DNA from: Lama guanicoe
Lineage: Eukaryota
Assembly (NCBI GenBank): GCA_013239625.1
Contig: MU053561.1
Span: 4,465,992-4,529,991, forward strand
Reading direction: 5' to 3'
Length of the DNA stretch: 64,000 bases
This document shows, piece by piece, positions 37,081 to 39,741 of this stretch (positions are counted from its first letter, which is position 1; every line of letters begins with the position of its first letter). The position numbers and the translations under genes were made by a program. The notes beneath the pieces were generated by a model. The model made no database searches, had not been told where the DNA came from, and saw only the letters and a list, made by a program, of their open reading frames with translations.

Positions 37081-37548
37081 AAATTTATACTGCTGATCCA
37101 AACAATTCTGAGAAGTGATCTAGTCCTTTCCGCATTATAGAATTGGCTGAAACCATCCCTTGCCATTAAAAATCACCTTGTTCTATTTCTTCATAGCACC
37201 CATTACTACTTGAATGTAATAAGCAGGACAGTGTCTGGTTAGGTTTTCAAAAGTTGAGGGCACACAACTAGTAAGAGGAGGAGACAATTAGAACCAAGGT
37301 CTAGTTTATCTTAGTCACTTAAACTTGATCTTTTTAAATGCCCAAGAAATATTTGTTGAAACAATAAATAAAGAGCCAGCAAAATGTTCTTGGACTGAGA
37401 ATATAATGATCAAAGTTGATGTTTCAGAAAGACTTAACCTGGCAGTACTTTGCAACATGGAATGGATGTGGGGAAAATAATTAAGAATCTATTACAATCA
37501 TCTGAATTTGAAGTAACTAAGAAAGTCAGTTAGAATTACATTGGCTGC

Positions 37549-37911
37549 CGCTGTCCCGTGAGGCTTGTGGGGCAGGTGGGGCCGGGCTGGGGCTGGAGCC
37601 GGTTAGGCCTGTGCTTGGGGTTGGGGTCGGGGATGCAGCAGCCGGGCCGAACTGCCTGGCTTGGTCTGTGGCTGAGGGATGGTGACCAAGCAGGTGGTTG
37701 TGACAGTCTGGCCCCTCAGAAAAAGGGAGACCAAAGAAGGAAGAAGAATTATTGGGGAAGTTGATGGCAAAGTGGCAAAAATCAGGAATTTAAAGGTGAC
37801 CGTCAACCCAATGGCTTTGGCAACTCCCAGGAGAAGGTTGTGGCATTTGGCTTTGATTACTGCTACTGGTCAGTCAACCCAGAGGACCCCCAGTATGCAT
37901 CTCAGGGTGTG
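37549..37911 (+). pseudogene. STARD9: Processed retrocopy of the 5' end of STARD9 (KIF16A): 5'UTR + first ~78 codons of kinesin-3 motor domain
   Basis: ATG 37679: MVTKQVVVTVWPLRKRETKEGRRIIGEVDGKVAKIRNLKV, then after a 1-nt deletion (~37797) DRQPNGFGNSQEKVVAFGFDYCYWSVNPEDPQYASQGV; matches recalled STARD9 MANVQVAVRVRPLSKRETKEGGRIIVEVDGKVAKIRNLKVDNRPDGFGDSREKVMAFGFDYCYWSVNPEDPQYASQDV; intronless; CpG decay. Confidence 0.9.
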
Positions 37912-38198
37912 TCTTTTACAGGCAGCTGTCCAGTTTTCCCAGCACCACTTACCGAGGAGACCGTCTTTTCTCCATTGTATATTCTTGCCTCCTTTGTCGT
38001 GGTTTGCTTGGCATGAGTGCTTGGGTTTATTTCTGGGCTTTTTGTCCTGTTCCATTGATATGTGTGTCTGTTTTGTGCCCCCACCATGCTGTTTTGATTG
38101 CTCTGGCGTTGTGGTGTGGTCTGGGGTTGGGGAGTGTGATTCCCCCAGCTCCGTTCTTCCTTTTCAAGATTGTTTTAGCTCTTCAGGGTTTTCTGTGT
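37912..38198 (-). mobile_element. Antisense LINE-1 ORF2 fragment inside the STARD9 retrocopy, A>G hypermutated on + strand
   Basis: Minus-strand translation QWNRTKSPEINP / DKGGKNIQWRKDGLLGKWCWENWTAACKR = L1 ORF2. Confidence 0.9.
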
Positions 38199-38890
38199 TA
38201 AAGATATTTATTAAACCATTGTTAGTGGGGATAAAATAGTAGAAACAAGTGATTGTCCATTTACAGGGCAATGGTTGACTTAATTCTGGGGCATTTACAC
38301 CATGGAATATATTGTAGATGACTTAGAATTTCTATGAGACAGTGTTAACTGTGAAAAGCAAGATGTATGATAACATCCCATTTTTAAAAGAAATAACCAA
38401 AACCCATAAATCTGTGAGTGTGTGTGCATTTATGATTATGACTGTGGGAAGAACAAGAAATGATGCCAGTTGTTATTACCTGCAGGTAGGGGTTAATGTA
38501 TGATGAGGGGAAAGAGGGGTGGCAAATAAAAAGGAAATAAAGCAAAGCATTCCCTGCAGGGTTGGAGGGTGGGGTAGAGAATTACATTGGCTGCTAGCAG
38601 CCAAAAACTCTAACTAATCAGTAGATAAAACAAATTAATTTTTCTTAAGTATTAAGAAGTCTGGAGGTGGGCAGCCCAGAGCTGACCTAGTAGCTTTAGG
38701 GTACCATCAGGGACCCTCGCCCTTTCTTTTTGCTCAGGCATTCTTCACACTTGGCTTTTGTCCTGCCTGTCACTTGTGTTACAACAATGGTTGATTTGCA
38801 CTCACCCTACCCAGATATTTTCTTATTCCAGGCAGGAAGAAGAAGGGCAAAATGCAGAACATAATGCCAGCTGACTGGACCTCTCTCTCT

Positions 38891-39015
38891 TTTTTTTTTT
38901 TTCCTGAGGGGGAGACAAATAGATTTATCTATTTATTACTGGGGGTACTGGGGATTGAACCCAGGACCTTGTGCATGCTAAGCATGTGTTCTACCACTGA
39001 GCTATACCATTCCCC
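38891..39015 (-). mobile_element. tRNA-derived SINE (Vic-1-like)
   Basis: gtactggggattgaacccaggaccttgtgcatgctaagcatgtgttctaccactgagctatacc with T-tract. Confidence 0.9.
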
Positions 39016-39741
39016 TGAGTTGCCCTCTTTTAAAAGAGCTTTTCCAGCAATTCTGCTTCTGTCCCATTGGCCAGACTCTTACATGGTCACTCTCACTGTG
39101 AAGAAGTCTAGCAAGTATAATTTTTTTTGACTGAGTGTACTAGTTAACTTTTGTTAACCTTGTTAACATTAGCTAACTTTTGTTAATAAGGAAAAAGGAA
39201 AAATGATTTTTTGAGGAGACAACTAGGGTATCTGCCACAAATGGAATGAGAAAATTGGAGGGTAACATAAAGATAGGAATCATTGGAGGAGAAGCAGATT
39301 TGGGGAGAAAAATGTTTGGTTTGGATATAAAAATTTGTAGATATCATTGAAAAATCCAGGTGGAAATGTCACAAAAAAAGAGTTTGAAAGGAACAAAAAA
39401 TATTTCGGTTCAGGAACACCTTTGTAATGTGTTCCAATATTGTTGATTGAAAGGAGAGGATGGCCGTAAAGCTAAGCAGCAAAATATTCTGTTTTTGCCA
39501 AAAAGGAAGCTTGTTTCGATTTTCAGTAGGAAATAGTTGAAGAGATTATTCAGTCCATGCCCATAATTCTGCCCCAAATCTGAAGTTCCAAACTGGTGCT
39601 GCTATCTTTAATATAAGCTACTAAGTTCTGCTGAGTCTTGCAAAGTACTGTCTTTACCTGACAGTAATTATCACACCCAGGCACACCTTGGCTATACCTT
39701 GGCTATGTCACACACAGCACATACCTTGGATATATCACATA

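Follow-up and report, generated by a model that had tools for sequence, protein, structure and literature searches.

The insert described here, 1029 bp between two 17-bp repeats, is very likely a processed retrocopy of a short alternative STARD9 transcript that joined exons 1-3 to a terminal exon derived from an antisense L1 element. It is intergenic, lying between NRAS-like and AMP-deaminase genes in the 64-kb stretch of DNA that was analysed (the window, to which positions refer unless a contig is named). The account as a whole, in which the L1 machinery made this short-isoform copy and the copy carries marks of RNA editing, is likely. A sequence-only reading had already proposed a unit of ~1.03 kb, and the repeats indeed bracket one of that size. 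Its parts are as follows.

37532..37548, + strand: left target-site duplication, 17 bp, preceded by TT
37549..37549, + strand: extra C between the duplication and the parental homology (the parent has G)
37550..37725, + strand: STARD9 exon 1 copy (5' UTR 37550-37678; ATG at 37679), 84% identity over aligned bases, 18 gap columns
37726..37795, + strand: STARD9 exon 2 copy, 96% identity
37796..37911, + strand: STARD9 exon 3 copy, 92% identity
37912..38198, + strand: terminal exon part 1, antisense L1 ORF2 fragment, starting exactly at the parental AG acceptor
38199..38555, + strand: terminal exon part 2, unique intron-3 sequence, 90% identity, K2P 0.106
38525-38530 and 38536-38541, + strand: polyadenylation signals AATAAA
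38556..38577, + strand: G-rich tail, 22 nt (14 G, 4 T, 3 A, 1 C), in the place of poly(A)
38578..38594, + strand: right target-site duplication, 17 bp

The insert aligns with four collinear stretches of a single gene, all on the + strand of contig C9598 in the same genome, and no further copy of this four-piece arrangement was found elsewhere in that genome. The pieces, with the exon that follows them, are these.

C9598:6691055-6691249, + strand: match to exon 1
C9598:6695978-6696051, + strand: match to exon 2
C9598:6697808-6697926, + strand: match to exon 3
C9598:6727214-6727868, + strand: source of 37911-38555, 654 bp, in intron 3
C9598:6742876-6743028: exon 4, matched by a pig STARD9-like protein

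Since exon 4 is placed there, the last piece of the insert lies within intron 3 (45.2 kb, including 269 N), with 29.3 kb between it and exon 3 on its upstream side and 15 kb between it and exon 4 on its downstream side. The insert lacks introns of 4.7 kb, 1.8 kb and 29.3 kb exactly at exon junctions, and every parental border carries GT/AG splice sites (AAGAG|gtgagt after exon 1, ag and gtaagc around exon 2, ag and gtaatg around exon 3, tttcag at the acceptor of the last piece). It had been predicted that the first part would fall on STARD9 exons 1-3 and the remainder in an intron beyond them. Both predictions held: 37550-37911 falls on these exons, bounded by splice sites, and 37911-38555 falls within intron 3, past exon 3. 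The exon structure and the GT/AG borders likewise favour the proposal of a near full-length cDNA of a short STARD9 transcript, which would have passed through an RNA in which exons 1, 2 and 3 were spliced normally.

The identity of the parent is given by protein comparison. The pig STARD9-like protein has 13 collinear matches at C9598:6695969-6759654 (51-95% identity), with motor exons running on collinearly downstream. In keeping with the earlier assignment of the peptide to STARD9/KIF16A, 10 of the 36 matches to the exon-3 peptide, its nearest relatives with a name, are called STARD9 (identity 75-96%), and the other 26 consist of 12 labelled "kinesin-like protein", two with other names, one with a status label only and 11 nameless. 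Homologues found with this peptide carry the kinesin motor profile PF00225. The retrocopy, in which only the first 77 motor residues are present, has no match to it, and two retrocopy reading frames together with parental exon 3 matched no Pfam family at E <= 0.01. The START domain PF01852 has 12 matches genome-wide and none on C9598, where short split exons may miss the threshold. At the 5' end, a GGGGCGGG box stands directly before the start of parental homology, and the region has a CpG o/e of 0.73 and 72% G+C; transcription of the source would thus begin in a CpG-island promoter of the STARD9 orthologue. The leader at 37549-37678, rightly described before as GC-rich, has 71.5% G+C.

The copy has decayed, with a frameshift, CpG loss (6 CpG in the exon 1 copy vs 14 in the parent) and ~5% substitutions, which would have accumulated after integration. 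A kinesin N-terminus had been assigned to 37679-37911. It does start at the ATG at 37679, and 37777-37920 matches the pig STARD9-like protein (73% identity, E = 1.9e-15), but a 1-nt deletion near 37798/37799, in the exon 3 copy, shifts the kinesin frame. Because of this frameshift and the intergenic location, the copy is a pseudogene, and no function of the locus itself is evident or indicated. The source RNA, ~1.0 kb long, would have coded for ~110 residues without the motor P-loop.

Minus-strand translation of 37873-38163 matches residues 917-949 of human L1 ORF2p (E = 9.6e-8), and 37911-38199 has 3004 candidate loci in the genome, 39 of the 40 that were scored showing 82-84% identity; the antisense ORF2 piece reported earlier is therefore real, and a Pfam search of it returned 0 families. 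The parental L1 is antisense and 5'-truncated, reaches at least 1.27 kb upstream of the acceptor, which sits inside it, and shares its end point with the L1 part of the insert. Within the L1 part, the retrocopy has only three derived states in common with the parent, a number that does not exceed the 1-3 it has in common with other L1 copies; what suggests descent from the parental L1 is the unbroken match across both borders. The sequence that follows had been taken for older repeat-like material but is not repeat-like, 38199-38555 having exactly one other copy in the genome, in STARD9 intron 3. Thus the L1 piece is parental intron used as an exon, a second template is not needed, and the "chimeric" character given to the unit is only apparent. 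Among database proteins, none crossed the junction between exon 3 and the L1 exon (18 matches among 25 candidates covered at most 59% of the query, none spanning both halves). The transcript would have been spliced from exon 3 to the cryptic AG acceptor in the L1, continued past the L1 end into unique intron, and been cleaved ~14 nt after an AATAAA. Two such signals, at 38525 and 38536, had been noted and are both present; parental homology stops 14 nt past the second, AATAAA is conserved in the parent, and the 3' end of the insert corresponds in this respect to a cleavage and polyadenylation site of the template.

The 17-mer AGAATTACATTGGCTGC has two exact copies in the window, at 37532-37548 and 38578-38594, as was claimed. 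Its count stays at two with up to two mismatches permitted, 0.02 matches are expected in shuffled sequence, and two matches were reached in 0 of 100 shuffles. The repeat cannot be extended (TT vs AG on the left, CG vs TA on the right), and its length falls within the ~7-20 bp range of L1 products. The TT noted earlier stands directly 5' of the left copy, so that the first nick would be placed at TT/AGAA, that is 5'-TTCT/AA on the bottom strand. This resembles, with one departure, the L1 consensus 5'-TTTT/A given in PMC4476161. Before insertion the site would have read TT, a single 17-mer, then TAGCAGCC. The left flank (449 bp) is single-copy in the genome and the right flank is repeated only from ~300 bp onward, where a SINE-like element lies; the flanks being single-copy, no paralogous empty site was found in the same genome. 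The L1 machinery would have nicked at TT/AGAA, copied the RNA between the two genes and produced the 17-bp duplication.

In 17 sequencing runs, from four organisms and six studies, 0.77-0.88 of the sampled words were contained. With the insert making up ~55% of the query, these shares hint that much of it is present in those runs.

The L1 segment has changed in an unusual way, which, like the lack of poly(A), the sequence-only reading had not remarked on. When the direction of change was set with eight other L1 copies, on the retrocopy lineage 16 of 49 ancestral A became G, vs T>C at 5 of 120 (Fisher p = 2.1e-6); the eight were those most similar to the retrocopy, a choice that biases against this result. 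All 16 changes lie at 37956-38129, within the antisense-L1 segment only, and at 38100-38129 zero A remain. On the parent lineage there is no A>G among 14 changes in the same segment, and private A>G number 17 in the retrocopy vs 1-4 in each of nine other L1 copies. Outside the segment, A>G was found at 7 of 131 positions in the adjoining unique part (p = 1e-5 against the L1 segment) and 2 of 66 in the exons (p = 4e-5). ADAR enzymes favour a 5' U or A and disfavour a 5' G. A 5' T precedes 9 of 16 changed A vs 8 of 33 unchanged, and a 5' G precedes 3 of 16 vs 9 of 33; both go in the expected direction, on small numbers. This dense A>G excess on the RNA strand, with no complementary T>C excess, has the form of a hyperediting imprint, and it was probably left by A-to-I hyperediting of the source RNA by ADAR, judging from the pattern of substitutions. 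The antisense-L1 segment would have paired with complementary L1 RNA before reverse transcription and been heavily deaminated (A to I, read as G), by which the 16 strand-specific changes would have been fixed in DNA. Across ~62 kb of the parental locus (intron 3 of 45.2 kb with its 269 N, introns 1-2 and 10 kb upstream), no inverted L1 copy complementary to the edited segment was found, and the terminal exon does not fold on itself unusually (z = 0.21). Thus a partner for double-stranded RNA is only inferred, and may have been sense L1 RNA in trans.

The main competitor to editing is mutation of the DNA after insertion, with GC-biased gene conversion, an asymmetry tied to transcription or an error-prone polymerase among its possible causes. 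Such an origin would agree with the missing RNA partner at the parental locus, with the further W>S changes that the retrocopy lineage underwent (T>C 5, A>C 3, T>G 1) and with an asymmetry on the parent lineage as well (C>T 8 vs G>A 0). However, the A>G excess favours the strand of the copied RNA 11-fold, where GC-biased conversion would treat both strands alike. It is also limited to the 287 bp for which complementary RNA exists in the cell; the next 357 bp and the exon copies lack it, and locally, at 38100-38129, every A is converted. DNA mutation is accordingly an unlikely source of the cluster, though the least unlikely of the alternatives considered here.

At the 3' end one L1 hallmark, a poly(A) tail, is missing. 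The hallmarks claimed for the unit are there as regards the duplication and the nick site, but in front of the right duplication no poly(A) or A-rich remnant was found, and the 22-nt G-rich tail stands there instead. The origin of this tail was sought in several places. Downstream parental sequence gave none (308 of 500 shuffles score equally well), and comparison with the parent with A>G allowed was unconvincing (115 of 2000 shuffles equal). The same holds for parental exon 1, where 16 of 19 bases agree with a gap (49 of 1000 shuffles equal), and for eight L1 loci, with best scores of 15-20. In the whole genome there is no second exact copy, and there are 17 near-matches vs one for a reversed control; the seven of these 17 that were examined had no common flanks and no wider match to the window. 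One may speculate that the tail was an A-rich one that was hyperedited, since reading its G as A gives 17 A of 22. If the cDNA had instead been captured at a double-strand break, with no part played by the L1 endonuclease, the missing poly(A) would be accounted for, and the extra nucleotides at both junctions (1 nt 5' and 22 nt 3') speak in favour of this. Yet the clean 17-bp duplication and TT/AGAA suit a staggered cut by the L1 endonuclease, and tailless retrocopies made by L1 and flanked by duplications are documented for snRNAs (PMC4476161). Break capture is thus very improbable beside integration by L1.

The combination of gene and L1 sequence in one insert also recalls template switching, in which the L1 reverse transcriptase jumps from L1 or another RNA to STARD9 mRNA, as in U6-L1. 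This is an established route to chimeric retrocopies, according to PMC4476161 and PMC5470649, and in principle the 22-nt tail could be a short first template. Products of the U6-L1 type finish in the 3' end of an mRNA, an Alu or a sense L1, with poly(A), and the insert has none of these there. The L1 piece is antisense and internal to ORF2, lacks an L1 3' end or poly(A), begins exactly at the AG acceptor of the parental intron and runs unbroken on its right into the unique intron-3 sequence with its one other copy. The four pieces, moreover, are collinear on one strand of one gene, and the tail matches none of the eight L1 loci, its near-matches sharing no flanks. A switch of template is hence more improbable still than break capture. 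Last, the disfavoured idea that 37912-38577 was resident and STARD9 exons 1-3 were inserted beside it draws only on the differing composition of the two halves and is barely credible, because the duplication encloses the whole unit, 37911-38555 is contiguous in STARD9 intron 3 and nowhere else, and the 37911/37912 junction joins a GT donor and an AG acceptor of the same gene.

Several known systems can be compared with the insert. With L1-mediated processed pseudogenes, whose hallmarks are given in PMC5470649, it shares the loss of introns at exact junctions, a 17-bp duplication, a T-rich/A-rich nick site, an end at a polyadenylation signal, a parent elsewhere, and a decayed, non-coding state. 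It differs in having no poly(A) remnant and in being full-length at its 5' end, which follows from a 1-kb isoform having served as template, the main mRNA of the gene being very long. The earlier statement that the insert keeps the 5' end of a very long mRNA is correct as to the end; the paradox drawn from it dissolves, the source RNA being only ~1.0 kb. Processed pseudogenes can be fossils of alternative transcripts, as Shemesh et al. are said to have described in 2006 (PNAS 103:1364). The present copy likewise preserves a parental transcript that varied in splicing and polyadenylation; unlike those, this transcript ends in an intronic terminal exon from an antisense L1. Exonization by splice sites on the antisense strand of L1 is described for active mouse L1 subfamilies and transcripts in PMC2176070. 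Here too an exon arises through an AG acceptor that an intronic L1 carries on its antisense strand, but as a DNA fossil in another mammal and as a terminal exon, with its poly(A) signal in the flanking intron. The tailless, 3'-truncated snRNA and tRNA retropseudogenes made by L1 (PMC4476161) are also flanked by duplications, with an L1-like cleavage site and no poly(A). As in those, the purine-rich 3' junction could pair with the nicked target, any overlap merging into the duplication; the template here was instead a spliced mRNA reaching its poly(A) site.

As for editing, this copy resembles edited retrotransposons, which Knisbacher and Levanon reportedly found in 2015 to be fixed in genomes, in that A>G changes cluster densely on one strand of a segment derived from a repeat. 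The likeness extends to hyper-edited RNA as PMC4365171 presents it; in the present case, however, what was edited would be the transcript of a cellular gene, a retrocopy of that gene holds the record, and no intramolecular inverted repeat was found. In the literature, no STARD9 retrocopy was among the matches listed for STARD9 pseudogenes, no work joining retrocopies with intronic polyadenylation was found, and no title among the matches listed concerned editing marks in gene retrocopies.

Events of this kind are already known, and this case is unusually informative. One insert serves as a record of five RNA-level events in an ancient germ-line transcript: its start site, three normal splices, an antisense-L1 acceptor used for a terminal exon, intronic polyadenylation and, probably, A-to-I hyperediting. 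The retained 5' end of a giant mRNA has an ordinary cause in a short template. It is a tentative and rather doubtful idea that the antisense-L1 exon itself got the short STARD9 mRNA mobilised, by pairing in trans with sense L1 RNA in the L1 ribonucleoprotein, ADAR1 editing the duplex and ORF2p priming on the purine-rich 3' segment without poly(A). Were this generally true, an antisense-L1 exon would act to recruit an mRNA for retrocopying, and A>G clusters in retrocopies would be its mark. A search for strand-specific A>G clusters could be run on retrocopies with antisense repeats, each compared with its parent; it would give a view of ancient editing and address whether mRNAs that pair with L1 RNA are more readily retrocopied.

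The insert at window 37549-38577 is supported as a processed pseudogene derived from a short, L1-terminated isoform of STARD9, a kinesin-3 with a START domain. Its single source in the same genome is contig C9598, plus strand. A genome search with the exon part gave four matches, namely the window itself and three parental exons, and a search with the unique 3′ part gave two, the window itself and the parent, with no additional copy in either case.

Pieces of the insert and their parental counterparts (C9598, plus strand)
Window 37550-37725, C9598 6691055-6691248: exon 1, 84% of aligned bases identical, 18 gap columns
Window 37726-37795, C9598 6695980-6696049: exon 2, 96% identity
Window 37796-37911, C9598 6697810-6697926: exon 3, 92% identity
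Window 37912-38555, C9598 6727215-6727868: terminal piece in intron 3, 86% identity

Canonical splice signals border every parental piece (AAGAG/gtgagt, ag/exon 2/gtaagc, ag/exon 3/gtaatg), and the terminal piece is directly preceded in the parent by the acceptor ttttaatttcag. A pig STARD9-like protein aligns exon by exon on C9598, and its mapping puts the next motor exon (exon 4, P-loop region) at 6742876-6743028. Therefore, the terminal piece, 29.3 kb downstream of exon 3 and 15 kb upstream of exon 4, is inside the 45-kb intron 3. The parental exon-3 peptide has 36 protein matches: StAR-related lipid transfer protein 9 is the name of 10 and kinesin-like protein that of 12, two carry other names, one has a status label only and 11 are unnamed. 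The Pfam START profile had no match on C9598, where short split exons may score below threshold. Elsewhere in the genome, two intronless long kinesin-motor matches (C2832:7777030-7777977, minus strand; C55221:1063392-1064369, plus strand), open for 567 and 527 codons and 40-42% identical to the STARD9-like motor, may represent retrogenes or kinesin genes with a single exon.

In the parent, the L1 lies antisense to STARD9, reaches upstream of the acceptor by at least 1.27 kb, and is 5′-truncated at C9598:6727504, the same point at which L1 homology ends in the insert (38198). Thus, an AG within the antisense L1 marks the start of the terminal exon, which runs over the truncated L1 end into unique intron sequence; parental homology stops 14 nt past the second AATAAA. 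Functional antisense splice sites have been described in mouse L1 (PMC2176070). From exon 3 the parental frame would stay open for 33 codons into L1 before a stop, and the predicted product would have about 110 residues and no nucleotide-binding loop. Homology starts 129 nt upstream of the ATG. A GGGGCGGG box immediately precedes this point, and the region is CpG-rich (CpG o/e 0.73, G+C 72%). This position is compatible with a transcription start, though no proof of it. On this evidence, the template measured about 1.0 kb, and the apparent paradox of a 5′-complete copy of a very long mRNA is gone. The sequence-only reading had taken the insert for cDNA of a short STARD9 transcript and predicted genomic matches to exons 1-3 and to an intron piece downstream of exon 3. 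Both are borne out by the collinear, splice-bounded exons 1-3 and intron-3 terminal exon. Six STARD9 models, from bats, naked mole-rat, a lemming and one metaclust entry (P0003, P0008, P0011, P0017, P0026, P0032), end soon after the exon-3 peptide QYASQ(D/E)V in short, unrelated tails. Terminal exons may have arisen repeatedly in the large intron 3, or else these gene models are broken.

The insert is flanked by two exact copies of AGAATTACATTGGCTGC, at 37532-37548 and 38578-38594. No third copy with up to two mismatches occurs in the window (G000:C1182:4465992-4529991, within a 2.05-Gb mammalian assembly), and two matches were seen in 0 of 100 shuffles (expectation, 0.02 matches). The repeat is exactly 17 bp long, with differing bases outside it on either side, and its left copy is immediately preceded by TT. 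The duplication and the parts of the insert were found as had been claimed.

Components of the insert (window coordinates)
37549-38577: whole insert between the repeats, 1029 bp
Upstream of the ATG: leader, G+C 71.5%
37679: ATG, followed by the kinesin N-terminus
37912-38198: piece of L1 ORF2 in antisense, with a match to residues 917-949 of human ORF2p (E = 9.6e-8)
Two AATAAA polyadenylation-type signals

The duplication and the TT/AGAA site (nicked strand TTCT/AA) fit L1 endonuclease, for which the consensus 5′-TTTT/A is given (PMC4476161). A perfect 14-nt palindrome, GGCTGCTAGCAGCC, closes the target site (window 38584-38602), and the second-strand cut, that is, the duplication end, is one base off its centre. 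A poly(A) remnant is counted with the duplication among the hallmarks of such insertions (PMC5470649). No poly(A) is present between the end of homology and the right duplication, so that the proposed L1-mediated retroposition keeps its duplication and cleavage site and loses this hallmark. The gap is occupied by a 22-nt tail (14 G, 4 T, 3 A, 1 C), for which no convincing source was found in the parental downstream sequence, even when A>G was allowed, or in the whole genome, eight L1 loci or parental exon 1. The nearest precedent for this junction is the snRNA-derived L1 products described as tailless, duplication-flanked and primed on purine-rich RNA segments (PMC4476161). The 5′ junction carries one additional C (37549).

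Neighbouring exons in the window
14.7-15.8 kb, plus strand: cold-shock-domain and SUZ-C exons (CSDE1-like)
18.1-22.7 kb, plus strand: Ras-family exons
51.2-62.0 kb, plus strand: AMP-deaminase exons

The insert lies between the Ras-family and AMP-deaminase exons in the orientation of both, and this gene order agrees with the NRAS-AMPD1 placement assumed earlier. About 300 bp to its right is a SINE-like repeat (38884-39023) with 2419 candidate genomic loci, showing 80-92% identity among the 40 scored, bar two short weaker second matches. In sequencing runs from four organisms, the share of sampled query words present was 0.77-0.88, with the insert accounting for 55% of that query.

Between retrocopy and parent, K2P is 0.106 over the unique part of the terminal exon, which is neutral in both copies. 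In the L1 part (287 bp), with A>G excluded, 16 changes fall on the retrocopy lineage and 14 on the parent lineage, about 5% each. Mammalian neutral rates are 1-2.2e-9 per site per year, which very roughly dates the insertion to 25-50 million years ago. Two 17-mers remain identical with probability 0.17 at 10% divergence; therefore, the perfect duplication is compatible with this age. Retrocopy and parent have only three derived states in common against other L1 copies, and the parental L1 was young at the time of copying. The retrocopy has lost 1 nt at the beginning of exon 3 as well as CpG from its leader (6 versus 14 in the parent). An open frame of 187 codons (37676-38236) starts at the STARD9 ATG and, after the frameshift, crosses the antisense L1; it has no Pfam family match and is taken for chance. 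Among 12 substitutions in exons 2-3 (37726-37911), eight are parent G to retrocopy A, six of them at CpG as read from the alignment, and none is C to T; exon 1 is balanced in this respect (G>A 6, C>T 7). The skew in exons 2-3 may be due to chance, to one-sided decay of CpG or to deamination of cytidines in the first cDNA strand. The antisense-L1 segment (C9598:6727215-6727503) shows, on the parent lineage, eight C>T and no G>A on the STARD9 coding strand, a strand asymmetry within a transcribed intron.

Divergence is much higher in the L1 part (K2P 0.198) than in the adjoining unique part, and the excess is of one type: 16 of the 52 A in the parent are G in the retrocopy, against 1 of 58 G for the opposite change. 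Differing columns were polarised with eight other L1 copies from the same genome, the most retrocopy-like ones, a choice that biases against this result. On the retrocopy lineage, A>G occurred at 16 of 49 sites versus T>C at 5 of 120 (Fisher p = 2.1e-6); none of the 14 changes on the parent lineage is A>G. As a control, private A>G changes in ten aligned copies number 17 in the retrocopy and 1-4 in each of the nine others. The sites span 37956-38129, with five within 17 nt and nine within 42 nt, and no A is left at 38100-38129. Elsewhere in the insert there is no excess (unique part, 7 of 131 A; exons, 2 of 66).

A-to-I hyperediting of the source RNA, followed by reverse transcription, would leave such an A>G burst on the copied-RNA strand. 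Because the burst is strand-specific and confined to the one segment for which complementary RNA exists in the cell, the cluster is likely to be an imprint of RNA hyperediting. ADAR has a 5′-neighbour preference, and the bias here, in small numbers, agrees with its direction: T precedes 9 and G 3 of the 16 changed A, and T precedes 8 of 33 unchanged ones. Against editing, no inverted L1 partner for the segment was found in intron 3 (45.2 kb, 269 N), introns 1-2 or 10 kb upstream, and the terminal exon shows no self-folding (z = 0.21). A DNA-level cause of the cluster is improbable. If editing took place, the segment may have paired with sense L1 RNA in trans or with an element lost since. Retrocopies of this kind are already known; the tailless 3′ end and the probable fossil of RNA hyperediting make the present case more informative.
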